The notes beneath the pieces are model-generated. The model saw only the letters and a list, made by a program, of their open reading frames with translations, ran no database searches and was not told the origin of the DNA. Position numbers and translations under genes: made by a program. A stretch of 64,000 nucleotides of DNA from Escherichia phage W143, in the sequence record MZ189262.1. One strand, 5' to 3'. Every line of letters begins with the position of its first letter. The first letter of the stretch is position 1. Shown in pieces: positions 10,127 through 18,542 of this stretch.

Positions 10127-10435
10127 TTATAGCGTAATCCATTCTCGTATTGTCTGAGTTACTACACGTTCACGAGGTTCGACTAATTCAACAGTCGGAA
10201 CTGCATAATACCAATCAGAATGGTAAGAACCTGAGCGAGATTCATTTACGGAAACATGCACATTATGTTTTGGACTAAAATAAACACACTGACGATATTG
10301 GCATTTGCCGTCTTGCACCCAGTCTTCTATTTCGGCAGGTTTAAGATAATCCGAAAAATCGAAATCATAGTTTTCTGAAAATGCATCATGGTCTTCGATG
10401 ATTTCACTCAGAACTGCATCAACATCGTAAATCAT
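10127..10435 (-). CDS. Hypothetical acidic protein (102 aa)
   Basis: ATG 10435 chosen because it abuts the upstream stop. Confidence 0.45.
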   Translation of the reverse strand: MIYDVDAVLSEIIEDHDAFSENYDFDFSDYLKPAEIEDWVQDGKCQYRQCVYFSPKHNVHVSVNESRSGSYHSDWYYAVPTVELVEPRERVVTQTIREWITL

Positions 10436-10437
10436 AT

Positions 10438-10653
10438 TTACCCCAATTTGACCATACAATCGCCGTATTTCCATTTAGAAATAGACTTTTCACCATTAGA
10501 ATAATAAACTTCGAGTTTAGCGCGGCCATTTTTAATTTGAATAACCTTTGCTGTCATCAAAGTTCCATACCCATAATAAACTGCAACCTCATCACCCACA
10601 TATACCGCGCTTCCGCGGTAGTCATGGATATAATCAGTTCCTTCGAGCATCAT
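10438..10653 (-). CDS. Hypothetical protein (71 aa)
   Basis: ORF overlapping the nrdC stop by 4 nt. Confidence 0.45.
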   Translation of the reverse strand: MMLEGTDYIHDYRGSAVYVGDEVAVYYGYGTLMTAKVIQIKNGRAKLEVYYSNGEKSISKWKYGDCMVKLG

Positions 10654-10914: not shown

Positions 10915-11157
10915 TTATTCCTTAATTCCTAGTACTTGTTTAAAAGTCTCGTCATAATCAAGACTTTGGCCCGTTTGTTCTTTATGTTTGTATATAATAT
11001 CACTTACTTCTGATAGCATATTTTTATATGAACGTGTTAAAGCAGATTTAAGCACGCTGTATCTATCAGGAAATTTACCATGTTCATTATAATACGCTAT
11101 TGCTAATTCACGGACTGCTTTTTCAGCAATCTCCATATATTCTTTACGCTTGGGCAT
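10915..11157 (-). CDS. Hypothetical protein (80 aa)
   Basis: ORF immediately upstream of nrdC. Confidence 0.45.
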
Positions 11158-11461
11158 TTTCTTCTCGGTTAAATCTGTGTTTGCAATGACGGCATTTATA
11201 ACGAAGAATATTAGTCTGCCAATGAACTAATTGCACCTGTTCAGTACCACACTTTGGGCAGTTTGGAACATTCTTAGAAGCCCTTTCGCGACGTTCAACC
11301 ATAACCATAATGGCATCCCAGGCTGGAGGTTTAAAGTCTAAATCATCGCAACCATGAATCTTTCCACGCATTTCTAAATCGTCTTCTTCACCAGCCATAA
11401 TAATTTTAATTAGACTGGAATTACTTGAAGCTGCAATATCTTCTAATAGACGCTTTTTCAT
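11144..11461 (-). CDS. Hypothetical zinc-ribbon protein (105 aa)
   Basis: C-terminal CPKCG...CRHCKH four-cysteine motif. Confidence 0.5.
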
Positions 11462-12387
11462 TTCAGTACCTCAATAGCATTACGTAAACCATTTGCTTTT
11501 GCATTAAGAGCTTTTAACAATTTGGTGTGTTCAGCAATCTGGGCTTCAACTTCAACTAGTCGAGATTTGAGATATTCACGTTCTTCGCTCAGGTTATCAA
11601 CCTTTTCTACTTTAGGTTCTTTTACATTTGGCTTATATGTATTAGGGTTCTTCAGTTTAATTAGAATGCGTGAACTGCATAACATTGAACCATTATCTTC
11701 GGTTTCGTCATACATTTCCACTACGTCCATAATTTTTAACATCATGCGGAGTTTATAAGACAACGAACGAATAGTTTTGTTGTGCTTATTAATTTCTTTA
11801 GCTGTCATGGTGCCGAGATTACGTGAGTAATAATAAGGAACCTGGATATTAATTAATACTGATGAACCACCTGGCTTGTGTGTTACTTCATCAGCAATAA
11901 CCCAGTCCTTAACATGAACTGTATTTGTACGGTCATCACCCGCGGTAAATAGTTTACGAGCATGCTTAAAAAGCATATTCACTTGGTCATTGAATTGACA
12001 AGCAAATTTATCAGCAAATTTAGTTTCAGGAATGGTAGATAACCAATCAGCCAAATGGGTCTTTTTAACATCGTTAACAATAGTAAATTCAACCAAATCA
12101 GTTATAGATGTCTCAGATTTAATAAAGCTCGGCTTCATAAAGTTTTTAATGTTATCGCGAGCTACAGTAGAAGATAACATACGAGAACGTTTAAACCATT
12201 GAAGCAAATTGCCCAACGAATGAGAATAAGCGTTCTGTGTATCTTTACAGATATGATTTTCCTGGCCAACATATTGAAGGAAATCACGAAGAATATTATT
12301 GATTACTGCTCTGTGTCCGATCTGATAATTACGGTGTTTAGTAATAAGACTATCAAAATAATCAATATAATGTTTACGAGTTTTCAT
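11458..12387 (-). CDS. Hypothetical protein with C-terminal coiled coil (309 aa), family member A
   Basis: About 250-aa N-domain then heptad-rich tail [39 protein letters not shown]; N-terminus MKTRK. Confidence 0.55.
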   Translation of the reverse strand: MKTRKHYIDYFDSLITKHRNYQIGHRAVINNILRDFLQYVGQENHICKDTQNAYSHSLGNLLQWFKRSRMLSSTVARDNIKNFMKPSFIKSETSITDLVEFTIVNDVKKTHLADWLSTIPETKFADKFACQFNDQVNMLFKHARKLFTAGDDRTNTVHVKDWVIADEVTHKPGGSSVLINIQVPYYYSRNLGTMTAKEINKHNKTIRSLSYKLRMMLKIMDVVEMYDETEDNGSMLCSSRILIKLKNPNTYKPNVKEPKVEKVDNLSEEREYLKSRLVEVEAQIAEHTKLLKALNAKANGLRNAIEVLK

Positions 12388-12420
12388 GTTCTTCTCACTT
12401 GATTAATGATTTATACTCCG

Positions 12421-12434
12421 AGCCATCCTTGGCT
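12421..12434 (-). other. Short hairpin with TCCT/AGGA loop
   Basis: agcca-tcct-tggct; same loop with different stems at 13476-13489 and 15860-15879. Confidence 0.35.
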
Positions 12435-12439
12435 TTAAA

Positions 12440-13441
12440 TTACTTAATTAACTGTAAAGCTTGTTCCAGACGATCAAGACGATTAACAGATTCTTCCCAA
12501 ATCCTTTTAGCCTGCTCATATTCTTTCTGCGCTTTATTAGAAATTTCTAGAGCTTCTTTATAAGCTTTTTCTAATGCAATAACTTCTGGACGAATTTCGA
12601 CAGGTTTAGGCGAATCATCAAGATTATCCATTAGTTCCTCAAGTGTAGTTTCTTCTTTAGGAGTATTCACAATTTCATCACATTTTTGTTGGTAAATTTC
12701 TTTATCAGTCGGTGAATAAGCACATTTCACTTCACGAAGACTAACTACAATTTTATATCCTTCCCAACCGCATATATTCTTAAAAGGATAAGTATGAATA
12801 TTTTCTACCGTTTCCATACAAAGTAATGCGGTTTCTAATTGACGAGTTATAGTGCTAGCAATTGAGAAAAATTTATTAATATTCTTTTGGTTAGTTTCTG
12901 GTGTAAAAAATCCATAATTCACAAAAATAGCTACTTTATTTTTATCAAGCTCATATTCTTTTACGATAATCATATCAGAAGCCAAAGGATGAATTTGACG
13001 ATAATCGCCATAACATAATTTAGAAGCTGATTTTAGAATCTGTCCTTTGAAAAGTCTGAAATTACTAATCCAACGACGAGTAAAAATATTCTCAGGGTCT
13101 TCTTTATTATTAAGATGATAAGAATTAACATCACCGAACCAATTATATCCTACTACATCTTTGGTTCGTTTAATTTCTTTCCCAAAATTACCAAGAATAT
13201 CCCGATTAACCAAATATGAAAGAAGACGAGACTCTTTAAAGGTTTTCTTGATAACATCTTTATCTACACGACTAGAAATTTTACGAATTTCATGAATAAA
13301 TTTAGTAGAAGAAACAATACTCGCGTCAACGCTATTGAGCCATTGATTGATAATAGAAATAACGCTATTTTGGCCAAACACCGGTATAGCTTTATCATCA
13401 ATAACACTATTGAATGATTTGATATATTCGTTACGAGTCAT
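12440..13441 (-). CDS. Hypothetical protein with C-terminal coiled coil (333 aa), family member B
   Basis: Track start at 13492 lies inside the promoter; ATG 13441 (MTRNEY) has SD GAGGAG; coiled-coil tail. Confidence 0.55.
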   Translation of the reverse strand: MTRNEYIKSFNSVIDDKAIPVFGQNSVISIINQWLNSVDASIVSSTKFIHEIRKISSRVDKDVIKKTFKESRLLSYLVNRDILGNFGKEIKRTKDVVGYNWFGDVNSYHLNNKEDPENIFTRRWISNFRLFKGQILKSASKLCYGDYRQIHPLASDMIIVKEYELDKNKVAIFVNYGFFTPETNQKNINKFFSIASTITRQLETALLCMETVENIHTYPFKNICGWEGYKIVVSLREVKCAYSPTDKEIYQQKCDEIVNTPKEETTLEELMDNLDDSPKPVEIRPEVIALEKAYKEALEISNKAQKEYEQAKRIWEESVNRLDRLEQALQLIK

Positions 13442-13469
13442 ATTAATCTCCTCAGTAGAAAGTAAGAAC

Positions 13470-13499
13470 ATTATACCACATCCTTGTGGCAAAGTAAAC
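13470..13499 (-). promoter_or_regulatory. Early promoter GTTTAC-N18-TATAAT with hairpin in the spacer
   Basis: -35 at 13494-13499 overlaps the stop of the upstream gene; -10 at 13470-13475. Confidence 0.55.
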
Positions 13500-14515
13500 T
13501 AGTTCAGTGCATTTAGTGCATTGTTCAGTTTAGAACGTTGCTTCGTGAGATTTTTGACTTTTTCTTGAGCTTTTTCTAGCATCTTTTCAGCTTCTAGCAC
13601 TTCATTGGTCGCTTTAACGAGTTCATCATCTACTGCCTTAAGAGACTTCTCAATCGCGTCAGCGTGCCATTTTTCTACAGGTTTAAAATTTGAATTTTCA
13701 GTAGGAAGAAAACTCACTTTATTAAGTTTACATGCATCTATATTGCTTGAGCTATACATCCAAAATTTAGGATTGTTTGATAAGTAATTGGATAAATTTA
13801 AATTTAAGTTATCTTGCACTTCCTGCTTTTTCTCTTGCGTGACTTCGTCCTTTCTCAAAAAATCGTATTTAAATGAAACGATCATATCAAGTTCATATAT
13901 TGTTGTGTCTAATAAACGAGGTAAAATCTTAGACTGAACAGCGGCAACAACATCCATATACTTAAATGCTTCTGTCAACTGTGATTTAAGGCATTCGCAA
14001 ATTGAAAGAGAATTTTTTGTATTAGGTTTAAAGCTAATTCGTGCAGTTCTGTTATTTTCTTTTAATGGTCTTACTTCCATCTGAAGAGTATAACCATCAA
14101 ATTTCAGATTCTTTAAGTTAATATCAGAACCTTTTAATCGACTCGCAGTTGATAAAATTTGCTTTAATTGTCTACGGAACAGAGCAATAAATCTCCATTC
14201 AATACGATAATGATTTGGATTGAAAAATCCAGATGATAAATCGACCTTACTTTGACCAACGCCTTGAACAAATAAAGGATTTTTATAATCAATAGTTTTA
14301 CAGAAATCGGTGAGCTGCTCACGAGCCGTCATTTGTGTAATATATCCCGCTTTACTAAAATTACGCACCCATTCACTGCTATTCGTATACTTAAAGTGAT
14401 GAATAACACGATTAACTTTATCAGGGTCTAAATTATTTTCACACAAAAATGTCATAACATCACGAGTATAACTGGCATTACGAACCATATCTTCAATTTG
14501 AGAACGAGTTTTCAT
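13499..14515 (-). CDS. Hypothetical protein with C-terminal coiled coil (338 aa), family member C
   Basis: N-terminus MKTRS like member A; tail ELVKATNEVLEAEKMLEKAQEKVKNLTKQRSKLNNALNALN. Confidence 0.55.
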   Translation of the reverse strand: MKTRSQIEDMVRNASYTRDVMTFLCENNLDPDKVNRVIHHFKYTNSSEWVRNFSKAGYITQMTAREQLTDFCKTIDYKNPLFVQGVGQSKVDLSSGFFNPNHYRIEWRFIALFRRQLKQILSTASRLKGSDINLKNLKFDGYTLQMEVRPLKENNRTARISFKPNTKNSLSICECLKSQLTEAFKYMDVVAAVQSKILPRLLDTTIYELDMIVSFKYDFLRKDEVTQEKKQEVQDNLNLNLSNYLSNNPKFWMYSSSNIDACKLNKVSFLPTENSNFKPVEKWHADAIEKSLKAVDDELVKATNEVLEAEKMLEKAQEKVKNLTKQRSKLNNALNALN

Positions 14516-14523
14516 GGTATTCC

Positions 14524-15414
14524 TTAAGATTTAAGTAAATCAACAATTTTAATTAACTTTTCACGCTCAGATTTAGCTTTACTACTCAATCCAGATAGTC
14601 TGAAAATTTCATCGTCATATTGTTGAATAGAAATATTCAGCTCTTCAATCTGCTTATTAAAATAATCAATTTGTTCAGAATGTTTTTCATTACTACGAAC
14701 TGGTACAGGTTTTGCAGGCAATGTAGTTGAACTGGATTCATCCGGGCGATAAATTAAAATACAACTTGAACCAATAGGGCATTTTGCACCAGATGAATAT
14801 TCTAATGTTCCAGCTTCTTTTAAAACTTCAAAAGCTAAACAGAGATGATGTCCCATATTAACATAATCTGTAGAGCGAGCTCTGATGTAATAATCATCTC
14901 CGCGAATACTAAATTTAAAGCATTTAAGGTCTTCTGTATTATTGGTCTTAAAAATCATTTGTTTATCTAGACCTTTAGCTAATCGAGCGCCTAATGCTAA
15001 TAATCGTCGTTGATTTTCCCACAAATCCGCAATCATTTGGTCAAATGATAATTTCGGCATTAGTCGACCATAAAGGTCATATCCTTTATTATAATTACGA
15101 AGGATTTCACTCGCATTAATACGAGACAACGCTCCAATTTTATTAAGGGCTTTCATAATGCGATTAGATAAACTCATTCCAGACCCGTTTGTTCGCTGTA
15201 GATGTTTTTCTAATCCAAATCCAATATCAACTTTAAACTTATCTAAAATTTCGGCATGAACATCTCTGTCAATAACATTCAAATCCAAAGTTGGGTTAAA
15301 TCTATGAAAAAATTTATCTGGCTCTCCACGACGAAATACAGTCCATTCATTCATCATTTTTTTATTAACTAAAGATTTAATTACTGCATTGACATTATTA
15401 ATTACTACTGACAT
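14524..15414 (-). CDS. Hypothetical protein with C-terminal coiled coil (296 aa), family member D
   Basis: ATG 15414 preceded by TGAGGAAAATATG, upstream stop embedded in the SD. Confidence 0.5.
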   Translation of the reverse strand: MSVVINNVNAVIKSLVNKKMMNEWTVFRRGEPDKFFHRFNPTLDLNVIDRDVHAEILDKFKVDIGFGLEKHLQRTNGSGMSLSNRIMKALNKIGALSRINASEILRNYNKGYDLYGRLMPKLSFDQMIADLWENQRRLLALGARLAKGLDKQMIFKTNNTEDLKCFKFSIRGDDYYIRARSTDYVNMGHHLCLAFEVLKEAGTLEYSSGAKCPIGSSCILIYRPDESSSTTLPAKPVPVRSNEKHSEQIDYFNKQIEELNISIQQYDDEIFRLSGLSSKAKSEREKLIKIVDLLKS

Positions 15415-15421
15415 ATTTTCC

Positions 15422-15829
15422 TCACTCAATTTCAATTTTACTAAATACACAGAATATGATTGAACAGACTACATAAGCGCCACACACGGATTGAACTAAT
15501 ACCATCCCAAAGAACCAAACAATATTATCAAACAGTGTCTGTTTTACGTCGAAAGGACGTAAACTTACAGTAATATTATCACCTTTTTCTATTGAAGAAT
15601 ACATCTCTGGTGAAATATATTCACTAAATCTATAACCGTCTTTAAGTTCATATACGGCAATAAACGATAAACTAGACCCTTTTCCTTGTGTTCCTGTAAT
15701 GGTATTAACTACAGTAACATCATAATCTTTATAATGCATATAATCATTAATTGCGTAATAACCGTATGCAACTACTACACATAAACAACATATCAATAAA
15801 TTCAATCTTTTAATTATCAACTGTTTCAT
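15422..15829 (-). CDS. Hypothetical membrane protein (135 aa)
   Basis: Hydrophobic helices near both termini. Confidence 0.5.
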   Translation of the reverse strand: MKQLIIKRLNLLICCLCVVVAYGYYAINDYMHYKDYDVTVVNTITGTQGKGSSLSFIAVYELKDGYRFSEYISPEMYSSIEKGDNITVSLRPFDVKQTLFDNIVWFFGMVLVQSVCGAYVVCSIIFCVFSKIEIE

Positions 15830-15858
15830 AATAATCTCAATTAAAAGGGCTTAGAACC

Positions 15859-15879
15859 ATTATACCATCCTTGGTATAA
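15859..15879 (-). promoter_or_regulatory. Extended -10 (TGGTATAAT) embedded in an 8-bp perfect palindrome TTATACCA-AGGA-TGGTATAA
   Basis: Read from sequence; dyad symmetry suggests a protein-binding site or RNA hairpin overlapping the promoter. Confidence 0.35.
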
Positions 15880-15884
15880 AGCGG

Positions 15885-16412
15885 TTATGCGAGTACCGTC
15901 TTTAACCGTTCTTCAAACTTCCGAAGAGTATTTTGGCGTTCAGCTCTTTGCTTTTTGTAAGTTTCAATACGCTCTGAAATGAGAGAGTATCGTTCATTTA
16001 CTGATTCTTTCATAAAATCAGGAATTTCACGAGAAGCTTTAATCTCATCAAATTTATCAATAACAGCTTGTTCTTCAGCAATTAAGTTATCATACATTAA
16101 AATATCTTTCTTGATAAACTCAATATCTTCTTGAGTTACACGAGATAATTTAGATGCTTTATCCTTTTTGTACTGTTCGTTAGTATCACGAGACCAGTGT
16201 AATGTACGATTTTTATTCGTATTCTTGTAAATTTCTACAATACCAATCTCATCGATAATAACGATCCAATTCCAACGGGATTTGTAAATTTGTCCTCCAT
16301 CAACAGTGATTTCACCTCCGATTGAGATGTCGTTAAAGAACTTACTTTGTGCTTCAGATTTAAATTTACCATCGTTGTAATTTACCAGGTTGAAAATATC
16401 TTTAGCGTTCAT
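15885..16412 (-). CDS. Hypothetical protein with C-terminal coiled coil (175 aa), family member E
   Basis: ATG 16412 with SD GGAGGAA; C-terminal 70 aa heptad-rich. Confidence 0.5.
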   Translation of the reverse strand: MNAKDIFNLVNYNDGKFKSEAQSKFFNDISIGGEITVDGGQIYKSRWNWIVIIDEIGIVEIYKNTNKNRTLHWSRDTNEQYKKDKASKLSRVTQEDIEFIKKDILMYDNLIAEEQAVIDKFDEIKASREIPDFMKESVNERYSLISERIETYKKQRAERQNTLRKFEERLKTVLA

Positions 16413-16440
16413 TTTGTGTTCCTCCGTAGTTGATAGTTGT

Positions 16441-16470
16441 ATAGTACCACAGAGGAGCAGTCTTGTAAAC
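16441..16470 (-). promoter_or_regulatory. Early promoter GTTTACA-N17-TACTAT plus conserved leader ACAACTATCAACTAC
   Basis: About 45 nt nearly identical to 18556-18609 and 35866-35916. Confidence 0.55.
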
Positions 16471-16472
16471 CA

Positions 16473-16787
16473 CTAAAAGAAACTTCTTTCACAATTTTTT
16501 CCACTGAACCATGCGCTCACTGCTTTCTTAGTCTCAGGAGCAGTGTTATCCATAAACCATTCAAAGGCAGCCTTTTTATGATTCTGGAGGGCTTCTCGGG
16601 CTTTAATCTGCTCACGGTCTATTAACACTAACATATGAGCCTTTCTTGTCACCATGGGCTTCTTATGATTTTTTGAATACTCCCAGTCATTTGTCCATCG
16701 CATTGTTGTTGCGAACTGAAATACTGCTTCTTTAATCTTAGTTTCGTAAATTTCACGAGCCTTTGAGTATAACATCATTACCTCCAT
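16473..16787 (-). CDS. Hypothetical protein (104 aa)
   Basis: ORF between promoter cassettes. Confidence 0.45.
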   Translation of the reverse strand: MEVMMLYSKAREIYETKIKEAVFQFATTMRWTNDWEYSKNHKKPMVTRKAHMLVLIDREQIKAREALQNHKKAAFEWFMDNTAPETKKAVSAWFSGKNCERSFF

Positions 16788-16857
16788 TTACCAGTTTAAT
16801 TCTAGTCATCTTTTTGATGGCAGTCCATATAATCTATTTCTGAACTGCCTTTTTGTC

Positions 16858-17577
16858 TTAGGATTCTTTTAAATGTCTTTTCTGAAAAGTTGATACCATA
16901 CTACGATACGGTTCATTTGGATACCCGTGTTTTATAGCTTCCTTTGTAAATTTTCTCCATCCATATTTAGTTTCTTTCCAAAGCTCGAATAATTCATCTT
17001 CATACTGCCATATAGTTAAATGAGAACGCTTTGCAGCTTTAATTCCATTAATATGCTTTTCTTTTACTACAGGATTGCTTAGTTTCTTTTTAATAATATT
17101 ACTAACTTTTCTAACAAAAACTGGGTCCTTATATCGTTGCGAAGTTTTTATTGAAGTGTTTAATTTAGCTTCCGGTGTAGATGTGACCTCTTTCATCTTT
17201 TTCTTCATATGCTGTATATGATTAGGATTTTTCCATAAATTTATAGAATGCTTTTTGCATTTTATCCTAGTTTCATCTGCAACCTTTCCTCCTTCACCTC
17301 CGTATGACAGGTTAACACAGTTTTTTCCATATTTCAATTTACCTGCCATGATATATAATATTTCAGCTTGTACCATTTTATCATAATTATCAAAAACTTC
17401 TAAAACCGTTTTTGATAATATGTGGTCATTTGACACTTTTACACGTTCTATATAATTTCCACTACCAACATACGAATCATTGATGTTATTAGTTATATGT
17501 CGACCATAATAGTATTTCTTAATACCTGTCTTTAAATTTAATATTTCAGTTTTATAGATAGTAAAATATTTTTTCAT
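16858..17577 (-). CDS. GIY-YIG homing endonuclease, seg-like (239 aa)
   Basis: N-terminal TIYKTEILN...KKYYYGRH, NDSYVGSG and GGEGG motifs shared with the segB-like ORF at 36463-37128; ATGA overlap with the upstream ATPase stop. Confidence 0.65.
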   Translation of the reverse strand: MKKYFTIYKTEILNLKTGIKKYYYGRHITNNINDSYVGSGNYIERVKVSNDHILSKTVLEVFDNYDKMVQAEILYIMAGKLKYGKNCVNLSYGGEGGKVADETRIKCKKHSINLWKNPNHIQHMKKKMKEVTSTPEAKLNTSIKTSQRYKDPVFVRKVSNIIKKKLSNPVVKEKHINGIKAAKRSHLTIWQYEDELFELWKETKYGWRKFTKEAIKHGYPNEPYRSMVSTFQKRHLKES

Positions 17578-18542
17578 TTTAATAATACCGTTTCAGCGAT
17601 TTCTTCCCAATGATTTTTGTCGGTCATAATAAAGTCAGCAAGATAAAGAGCAGTACGCAGTGAAACATTGCGTAAACGATTAACATTAACTTTCATCCAT
17701 GATAATGCTTTATAAGTTTCTTCATCAGAAAGACCGCGCTTTTGCATCATGTCAGTTGAAAGAATAACATCTTCAACCCTGACCATAATTTCTTCATTAG
17801 TGTGAACACCCAAATCTAAATAAACTGAGCGGGACACTAATGCTTGTAAATGTGGAGCAAGTTTAGTACCACGGTCTAATTCGCGGTCAATGTCAACGTT
17901 TGTGATAAAAACAATCGTTCCTTTAAATTCAAACTCACGGTCAATGCCTTTTTCTTCTAAGTAAGAAGATGCAGTGCTCCAGCAGACTTTACGGGTCTCT
18001 CCAGTGTCCAGAGCAGCTTTTAGAAGATTAAGAATGTCCATATCAGAGAAAACATCCACATCATCAATCAAAAGGACAGAATTCTCTTCACGATTATTCC
18101 AAAGCTGTTCATAAAGACCAATACCAGAGATTTTACCATTAATGCTTTTATATTCAATGTATCCATTATCATTTGCTTTATTTAAAGCTTTATCTAAAGA
18201 ATACGTTTTACCAATACCTGCTGCGCCAGAGATAATTAATGAACGAATATTTCCGTTAATAATACCATTCGTCATCATTCCCATAACATTAAATCTTTTA
18301 TTAATGCGGGTTTTCATATCTTCATATGATTCTTTAACTTCTTCAACTTTTACACCATCATATGAAATATCTGATTTGTAAACCCAAACACCGCGACGTT
18401 TACCGTCAATTTCAACAAAAACTTTACCATCTCCTTGTGCATCTACCGGAGCATTATCAGGGAACCACTCACCTAAGAGCTCAAAAGTTCCAGAGATTTC
18501 TTTACCGAAGTAGATACCCTTATTGATAGTTACAGTTTTCAT
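17574..18542 (-). CDS. AAA+ family ATPase (322 aa)
   Basis: Walker A SGAAGIGKT and Walker B VLLIDDVD; track start is TTG 18554, ATG 18542 follows GGAGAATAAA. Confidence 0.65.
   Translation of the reverse strand: MKTVTINKGIYFGKEISGTFELLGEWFPDNAPVDAQGDGKVFVEIDGKRRGVWVYKSDISYDGVKVEEVKESYEDMKTRINKRFNVMGMMTNGIINGNIRSLIISGAAGIGKTYSLDKALNKANDNGYIEYKSINGKISGIGLYEQLWNNREENSVLLIDDVDVFSDMDILNLLKAALDTGETRKVCWSTASSYLEEKGIDREFEFKGTIVFITNVDIDRELDRGTKLAPHLQALVSRSVYLDLGVHTNEEIMVRVEDVILSTDMMQKRGLSDEETYKALSWMKVNVNRLRNVSLRTALYLADFIMTDKNHWEEIAETVLLK

Follow-up and report, generated by a model that had tools for sequence, protein, structure and literature searches.

Do the five neighbouring genes at positions 11458-16412 of Escherichia phage W143 form one diversified family, and what would such a family do during infection? 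The genes lie in a 64,000-nucleotide stretch of the phage genome (record MZ189262.1; this whole stretch is referred to as the window). A preliminary description had presented them as a tandem family of five, resembling diversified effectors, each with a divergent N-terminal domain followed by a heptad-rich C-terminal tail. Our analysis argues strongly for a relationship between four of them, the orthologues of T4 nrdC.3, nrdC.4, nrdC.5 and nrdC.6, and sets the fifth, nrdC.8, apart.

Four related genes at the nrdC locus

Bases 11000-17000 of the window are 95-97% identical in DNA sequence to many Tequatrovirus genomes, with the gene order of T4 and RB3; the window is that of a Tequatrovirus (T4-like phage). 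The preliminary description had left open whether T4 has orthologues of these genes in its nrdC.x block, and such orthologues were found for all five. The genes lie where they had been placed, on the minus strand and with good Shine-Dalgarno sequences: nrdC.3 (11458-12387, 309 amino acids; phrog_1435, E = 3.6e-116; syntenic with T4 and RB3), nrdC.4 (12440-13441, 333 amino acids; phrog_1435, E = 1.2e-168; its homologues carry PF26897), nrdC.5 (13499-14515, 338 amino acids; Pfam DUF7235, E = 5.4e-116, covering the whole protein), nrdC.6 (14524-15414, 296 amino acids; phrog_2257) and nrdC.8 (15885-16412, 175 amino acids; PF26901 and phrog_2274). Each protein is a full-length member of its own model, with NrdC.3 and NrdC.4 sharing PF26897/phrog_1435. 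NrdC.5 is 92% identical to T4 NrdC.5, and its gene sits between nrdC.6 and nrdC.4 in both phages. The N-termini MKTRKH (nrdC.3), MTRNEY (nrdC.4) and MKTRSQ (nrdC.5) were confirmed, and the assigned start codons are right, since each has a GAGG-type ribosome-binding site and since the -10-like element of nrdC.4 sits downstream of the alternative upstream starts. All five are conserved T4 genes, but a known function exists only for nrdC.5.

NrdC.3 and NrdC.4 align by BLASTP with 26% identity over 231 amino acids. The relationships of nrdC.5 and nrdC.6 became clear only after divergent orthologues from other genera had been added. A first round of hhalign with shallow alignments gave 55% probability for nrdC.5 and nothing for nrdC.6; the NrdC.5 comparison was weak because this protein has close homologues only (at least 76% identity). 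The NrdC.5 profile was enriched with proteins of 23-28% identity encoded at the nrdC.5 position in other genera (loci L013-L021). Direct searches for related loci yielded only 5 and 14 close ones, and diversity was gained by using nrdC.10 as a conserved synteny anchor. With the enriched profile, hhalign related nrdC.5 to nrdC.3/4 with 94.5% probability (E = 7.7e-8) over 252 columns, extending from a conserved S-R-L-L-S motif to the last residue.

For NrdC.6, three independent lines of evidence came from structure and from profiles. The AlphaFold2 model of NrdC.4 matched the JS10 protein "nrdC.6" in BFVD (Foldseek E = 1.4e-5). An iterative profile search started from NrdC.3/4/5 recruited first a Klebsiella phage protein (E = 3.5e-10) and then Gaprivervirus NrdC.6 (E = 5.8e-4, in a set of 216 open reading frames, ORFs), followed by all NrdC.6 proteins and by members from Cronobacter, Yersinia and Acinetobacter phages. 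A profile free of NrdC.6 aligned with the NrdC.6 profile in hhalign with 91.2% probability (E = 1e-6), and the reciprocal enriched comparison gave 96.7% (E = 3.4e-10). Colinear profile similarity over the full length, C-terminal helix included, was thus seen for nrdC.3, nrdC.4, nrdC.5 and nrdC.6, and not for nrdC.8. We consider it highly probable that the four genes are tandem paralogues of one ancient Straboviridae gene, with nrdC.6 the most distant member; this judgement covers the evolutionary and architectural part of our interpretation.

Many deposited genomes label nrdC.3 through nrdC.10 "thioredoxin", one NrdC.8 orthologue in BFVD is labelled "ribonucleotide reductase alpha subunit", and nrdC.8 has been discussed as a nucleotide reductase in a 2026 paper (PMC13275509). 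These labels exist because they were carried over from the locus name nrdC.x; Pfam and NCBIfam searches found no thioredoxin-fold or ribonucleotide reductase domain in any of the five proteins.

A conserved terminal helix behind a variable body

A crude heptad score was applied to the 101 non-overlapping ORFs of the window. By C-terminal score, nrdC.5, nrdC.8, nrdC.3 and nrdC.4 ranked first to fourth, in that order, and nrdC.6 ranked eighth. When the last 49 residues of each protein were compared with 20,000 shuffles, heptad periodicity was significant for nrdC.3 (p = 2e-4), nrdC.4 (p = 0.015), nrdC.5 (p = 3e-4), nrdC.6 (p = 1.4e-3) and nrdC.8 (p = 6.7e-3). The same test gave insignificant periodicity for the neighbours nrdC.1, nrdC.2, nrdC.7 and nrdC.9. 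In all five tails, then, hydrophobic periodicity exceeded that given by composition, and AlphaFold2 predicted helices for the tails of NrdC.4 and NrdC.8; the heptad-rich tails of the preliminary description were borne out throughout.

In the four paralogues, the predicted terminal helix is amphipathic and 45-55 residues long, with 6-8 unbroken heptads and the end motif L-x-x-A-L-x-x-L-K. It spans about residues 261-309 in NrdC.3 (11461-11607, minus strand, as for all tails), where 14 consecutive a/d positions are nearly all L, I or V. The NrdC.4 helix covers residues 285-333 (12443-12589). In NrdC.5, the helix comprises about residues 281-338 (13502-13675), following a KPV at 278, and its alignment with the NrdC.4 tail extends to the very end of the protein. 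The NrdC.6 helix (about residues 243-296; 14527-14688) follows a KPV at 235 and has many positions that are invariant among distant orthologues. All four proteins have a K-P-V motif (P-K-V in NrdC.3) at a distance of 49-59 residues from the C-terminus, whereas NrdC.8 lacks it. The terminal motif, in the more general form L-x-x-A/I-L/I/V-x-x-L-K, is found in all four, in the Acinetobacter phage Acj61 proteins p120 and p121, and across the family alignment. A 137-residue protein that matched the NrdC.6 tail (P0133) was discarded, as it looked like a low-quality, G/E-rich sequence.

AlphaFold2 models were made for NrdC.4, the only family member modelled, and for NrdC.8. The NrdC.4 model had a mean predicted local distance difference test score (pLDDT) of 83.8. 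It consists of helices (residues 3-84), an alpha/beta domain (88-235) built of three strands, a long helix, a hairpin, a second long helix and a second hairpin, two short helices (246-272), a low-confidence, disordered stretch (261-282), and a single long helix of 48 residues (285-332; pLDDT 82-88). Taken together with the family alignment, the model suggests a shared plan of a helical N-terminal sub-domain, a variable alpha/beta domain, a disordered KPV linker of about 40 residues, and the conserved terminal helix. The alignment shows three sets of conserved motifs, S-R/G-x-L-S...A-x-x-x-L-x-x-F, L-x-x-A-L-x-x-M-D...V and the terminal K-L-x-x-A-L-x-x-L-K, as well as a conserved R-L-x-x-G-D-D-R turn that has been lost in NrdC.5.

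That all five proteins, NrdC.8 included, share a homologous C-terminal coiled-coil module, as originally described, we regard as very improbable. The periodicity of NrdC.8 is significant (p = 5.5e-4 when the last 42 residues are taken), its heptad score is second only to that of NrdC.5 in the window, and nrdC.8 directly adjoins nrdC.6 in JS10 and related genera. Furthermore, the best non-self hidden Markov model matches lead from NrdC.8 to NrdC.3 tails and from the nrdC.6 profile to NrdC.8 proteins, but with E-values of only 0.07-0.7. In hhalign, nrdC.8 aligned with every family profile at E > 0.07 (0.08-0.6), over only 10-27 coiled-coil columns, and four rounds of the iterative search from NrdC.3/4/5 never recruited it. 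Its model (pLDDT 70) has a poorly defined N-terminus, a four-strand meander (residues 41-74) and two long helices (94-127 and 132-174), that is, a beta-meander of about 35 residues and a two-helix hairpin instead of a three-part body and a single helix, and a Foldseek search with this model returned only its own orthologue. Between genera, nrdC.8 retains 67-69% identity, its rate of evolution being one half to one third of that of the family, and phages of Klebsiella, Yersinia, Cronobacter and Acinetobacter that carry family members lack it. We therefore rejected nrdC.8 as a family member: it is a gene of its own, better conserved, and its long helices are coincidental. The tandem family with a shared architecture thus stands for nrdC.3, nrdC.4, nrdC.5 and nrdC.6, while nrdC.8 has only the long C-terminal helices in common with them.

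What the tails do is a separate matter from their homology. The a/d positions form 7-8 unbroken heptads of nearly all L, I, V or A in NrdC.3, NrdC.5 and NrdC.6, as expected of self-association. The a/d positions of NrdC.4 are Ala-rich and less hydrophobic than in a classic homo-oligomeric coiled coil, which would suit another use of the helix, namely docking to one common partner, either a host hub or a phage protein, without self-association. No other part of the proteins is as well conserved as the tail, whether genera or paralogues are compared, and its L-x-x-A-L-x-x-L-K motif reaches into Acinetobacter phages, a pattern that fits a shared partner equally well; a precedent exists in the T4 internal proteins, whose variable anti-defence bodies have a short targeting sequence in common. 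In one variant, the partner would be the helical hairpin of NrdC.8, yielding a three-helix bundle. However, many phages have the family but no NrdC.8, which can therefore hardly be a general partner of the tails, and the docking interpretation comes with no identified candidate partner. Considering also the near-perfect hydrophobic heptads of three of the four tails, we view docking as rather unlikely and favour oligomerisation.

The Foldseek matches of the NrdC.4 model included, besides JS10 NrdC.6, a 308-residue Yersinia phage protein and many uncharacterised Straboviridae proteins of 300-370 residues, from phages of Acinetobacter, Pectobacterium, Klebsiella, Erwinia, Serratia and Aeromonas. 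A tail-completion protein was among the weak matches, and the predicted fold of the alpha/beta domain may resemble that of phage tail-terminator and tail-completion proteins. One alternative casts the NrdC proteins as parts of the virion or of its assembly machinery that are relatives of tail terminators, the coiled coil serving as a structural stalk. The NrdC proteins matched no tail family in Pfam, PHROG or NCBIfam, and the tail terminators (lambda gpU, T5 p142, SPP1 gp17-like, DUF3168) have no sequence similarity to them. Unlike tail terminators, the NrdC proteins are early rather than late, are dispensable, and have an additional helical domain, linker and coiled coil. A structural role in the virion appears scarcely credible to us.

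A sequence search of the PDB gave only spurious matches (designed helical repeats, respiratory syncytial virus F coiled coils and ribosomal proteins), with no solved relative and no Dsr1 complex. Pfam and NCBIfam matches to the PHL domain, DUF3905, FapA, CENP-F, PgrA, prefoldin and the XerD SAM-like domain were far below the curated cut-offs and were dismissed as noise or coiled-coil bias.

Divergence, rearrangement and surroundings of the array

Family members are widespread in Straboviridae, including Klebsiella, Cronobacter and Yersinia phages. In Acj61, p120 and p121 are adjacent and lie between nrdC and nrdC.10, as the locus does in T4, and both have an L-x-K-A-L tail. JS10 has three members and lacks nrdC.3 and nrdC.7. 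By tblastn over 50,697 phage records, presence is variable for nrdC.3 (653 records with a match), nrdC.4 (553) and nrdC.5 (529); nrdC.6 and nrdC.8 matched 741 records each.

In comparisons between genera, no genes of the block have diverged more than the four paralogues. Orthologues of nrdC.4 have 39-51% identity and those of nrdC.6 48-52%, and for nrdC.5 the identity is 23-27% or undetectable, against 66-88% for the flanking nrdC, nrdC.8, nrdC.10 and gene 49. The divergence is unevenly distributed along the proteins. NrdC.3 of the window and of T4 (locus L001, 6934-7860) are only 60% identical, while the proteins of neighbouring genes are 87-100% identical, and the difference is confined to residues 91-270 (40-57%), with 87-90% in residues 1-60 and 73-100% in the tail. 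Likewise, NrdC.4 orthologues of different genera have 59-76% identity in the tail and 22-49% in the alpha/beta domain. When phage records were compared with the nrdC.3 allele of the window, the identities clustered in distinct ranges (95-99%, 90-95%, 60-80% and below 60%). This suggests that there are several types of allele and that recombination via the conserved ends exchanges them.

Natural isolates often have family genes deleted or fused, with deletions and an in-frame fusion occurring in viable phages. Salmonella phage Manna encodes an in-frame fusion of NrdC.6 (residues 1 to about 270) with NrdC.4 (251-333), joined at a DDEI/CDEI micro-homology (Manna_094; locus L024, 4215-5252). ACG-C40 has only a frameshifted remnant left, running from nrdC.5 to the nrdC.3 tail (L023, 4805-5216), and Pinarejo only the last 47 codons of nrdC.6 (L025, 5001-5141). 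Two independent fusions, Manna_094 and P0123, were seen to break at the same site, IQQYDD(EI), in the NrdC.6 tail. The protein P0057, encoded on a metagenomic contig, was considered as a possible module swap and rejected, being a deletion chimera of NrdC.5 (146-270) and NrdC.3 (126-309) with a non-equivalent joint.

Several of the genes had been credited with an early promoter of their own. Matches to the T4 early-promoter consensus were indeed present on the minus strand upstream of nrdC.4 (13470-13498; TTTACT-17-TATAAT with a TG before the -10), in the 56-base gap between nrdC.5 and nrdC.4, and upstream of nrdC.8 (16441-16469; TTTACA-17-TACTAT, with TG). There is no room for promoters at nrdC.5 and nrdC.6, because the gaps to the preceding gene are only 8 and 7 bases. 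Moreover, the region contained 45 promoter-like sites, compared to 38.5 +/- 7.1 in shuffled sequences, which is no excess; the sites are therefore consensus matches only, and the promoter claim is weak. A putative middle-promoter-like site lies upstream of nrdC.7 (15859-15882, minus strand), where a MotA-box-like GCTTTA is followed, with a spacing of 12, by TATAAT, resembling the T4 middle-promoter consensus. The intergenic regions preceding nrdC.3, nrdC.4 and nrdC.7 have a core in common on the minus strand, CAAGGATG(G), placed between a -35-like and a -10-like element. The variants GCCAAGGATGGCTC, CACAAGGATGTGG and ACCAAGGATGGTA occur in 12388-12439, 13442-13498 and 15830-15884, with short inverted repeats in two of these regions, which may be duplicated regulatory or terminator-like elements.

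The array is interrupted by nrdC.7 (15422-15829, minus strand; phrog_2547), which sits between nrdC.6 and nrdC.8 and is not part of the family. It encodes a predicted membrane protein of 135 amino acids with hydrophobic N- and C-terminal segments, is annotated as a membrane protein in T4 and RB3, and is not part of the array of JS10, VR25 or phages of other genera. Between nrdC.9 and nrdC.10 there is an ORF of 239 amino acids (16858-17577, minus strand) with a GIY-YIG-like start, YYYGRH...YVGSG, which overlaps the end of nrdC.10 by 4 bases. T4 has no counterpart at that place, and related genomes annotate the ORF as a homing or intron-like endonuclease; a Pfam search gave no match at E <= 1e-3. 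The product of nrdC.10 (17574-18542) is a P-loop protein with weak matches to AAA and novel-STAND NTPases, all below the cut-offs. The gene is far more widespread than the adjoining array, occurring in 1311 phage records that include Vibrio, Aeromonas and jumbo phages. On the other side, between pin/49.x and nrdC (10127-10653), the window has ORFs of 115 amino acids and of 71 amino acids (DUF7205), as in RB3, where T4 has gene 49.3; this is another small mosaic difference from T4.

A possible counter-defence array and its relation to known systems

The functional evidence concerns NrdC.5. A T4 clone lacking nrdC.5 failed on E. coli strain ECOR17, and deletion of dsr1 from ECOR17 brought infection back (Srikant, Guegler and Laub 2022; PMC9391042). 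In the same study, dsr1 alone shielded MG1655 from the nrdC.5-deletion clone, and T4 nrdC.5 supplied on a plasmid reversed the shielding. A 2026 preprint (PMC12803255) reports that the major capsid proteins of phages are recognised by Dsr1 through its tetratricopeptide repeat (TPR) sensor. In a T4 time course, nrdC.3, nrdC.4, nrdC.6 and nrdC.8 had early RNA and early protein, and nrdC.5 had early RNA and middle protein (PMC9697503, supplement).

These data, together with the variable centre and conserved tail of the four paralogues, support the idea of a diversified family with a shared C-terminal module, presumably for oligomerisation or targeting, with the exclusion of nrdC.8. We propose that the four genes constitute an array of early, dispensable, fast-evolving and oligomeric counter-defence proteins, each directed at a different target, with NrdC.5 acting against Dsr1. 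The proteins are produced early in infection, and laboratory hosts support growth without them. Their terminal helices would assemble them into coiled-coil oligomers, and the variable body of each paralogue would bind and neutralise a different host defence protein, which for NrdC.5 would be the SIR2-type NADase Dsr1. By analogy with the action of DSAD1 on DSR2, NrdC.5 would most likely occupy or lock Dsr1 before the late capsid trigger appears. The counter-defence role of NrdC.3, NrdC.4 and NrdC.6, the oligomerisation and the direct binding are what we infer, and we put the probability of the statement as a whole at about 0.5.

Several points weigh against it. Functional data exist for one of the four members only, and NrdC.5 might act on Dsr1 by an indirect route; a literature search on nrdC.3, nrdC.4, nrdC.6 and nrdC.8 returned only catalogue mentions. 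As an isolated long helix in a monomer model, the tail could equally dock a partner. The presence of nrdC.6 in all 741 related genomes and its conservation of 95-99% within the genus look less like an arms race than the behaviour of nrdC.3 and nrdC.5. Finally, the nrdC.5 and nrdC.6 profiles rest on few closely related sequences, and the E-values linking them come from small custom sets.

The universality and good conservation of nrdC.6 within the genus would also suit a family with a general role in host takeover or housekeeping, such as binding to nucleic acids or to the nucleoid, for which the effect on Dsr1 would be incidental. Expression early in infection alongside takeover functions agrees with this, as does a weak resemblance of NrdC.3 residues 30-86 to the SAM-like N-terminal domain of tyrosine recombinases (Pfam E = 0.07; NCBIfam E = 0.0013, at 18 bits against a cut-off of 279). 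This resemblance is the sole hint of a nucleic-acid-binding module and is probably due to chance. We consider a general takeover role unlikely.

A more specific version of the counter-defence proposal takes up the tail-terminator-like model of the alpha/beta domain. The variable body might be an exapted tail-terminator or tail-completion fold, and the proteins early, oligomeric look-alikes of virion components. They would occupy in advance the sensors with which defence systems detect late structural proteins. Different paralogues would then match different sensors, and recombination between the conserved ends would rearrange the array. This decoy idea is speculative, and we think it distinctly unlikely.

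Even in T4, the phage that has been studied best, the role of about half of the early genes is not known. Paralogy with NrdC.5 turns the orphan genes nrdC.3, nrdC.4 and nrdC.6 into specific candidates for host-range or anti-defence factors, and their relatives in Klebsiella, Acinetobacter, Yersinia and Cronobacter phages likewise become candidates. In the domain map, the hypervariable alpha/beta domain is probably the site of target recognition and the coiled-coil tail the constant scaffold, which provides a basis for truncations, chimeras and pull-downs and for working out how Dsr1 is inhibited. For phage therapy, it matters that a natural isolate of a T4-like phage in which these genes are lost or fused may infect a different set of strains.

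The genes themselves are long-known T4 ORFs, and the function of NrdC.5 has been published. The anti-Dsr1 activity was shown for the T4 protein, of which the product of 13499-14515 is the orthologue. That study treated nrdC.5 as a single uncharacterised gene, without reference to paralogy, a domain plan or a coiled-coil tail (PMC9391042), and in the literature searched we found no mention of these features or of a relationship with nrdC.3, nrdC.4 and nrdC.6. In Pfam and PHROGs, NrdC.3/4, NrdC.5 and NrdC.6 make up three distinct families, each of unknown function; here they are joined, with NrdC.8 left outside. New in relation to the papers searched are the single superfamily of NrdC.3/4, NrdC.5 and NrdC.6, the domain map, the pattern of conserved ends and variable centre, the possible tail-terminator-like fold, and the exclusion of NrdC.8.

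The nearest mechanistic parallel is DSAD1 of an SPbeta-phage. DSAD1 is described as disarming the SIR2 NADase DSR2 by binding to it, and the DSR2 sensor as detecting a late structural protein. DSAD1 has a different target from NrdC.5 (DSR2, not Dsr1) and belongs to another phage lineage; the likeness would be one of mechanism only.

In evolutionary pattern, the family is reminiscent of the T4 internal proteins IPI, IPII and IPIII, which also combine a conserved short module with fast-evolving bodies, are encoded in a plastic accessory locus and have host-range roles. The internal proteins share an N-terminal sequence that targets them to the capsid, and packaging places them inside the head. 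IPIII counters an unidentified defence of ECOR17 (PMC9391042). In the NrdC family, by contrast, the module is a C-terminal heptad helix and the products would be early and cytoplasmic, making the resemblance one of logic: a constant module carried by bodies that change rapidly.

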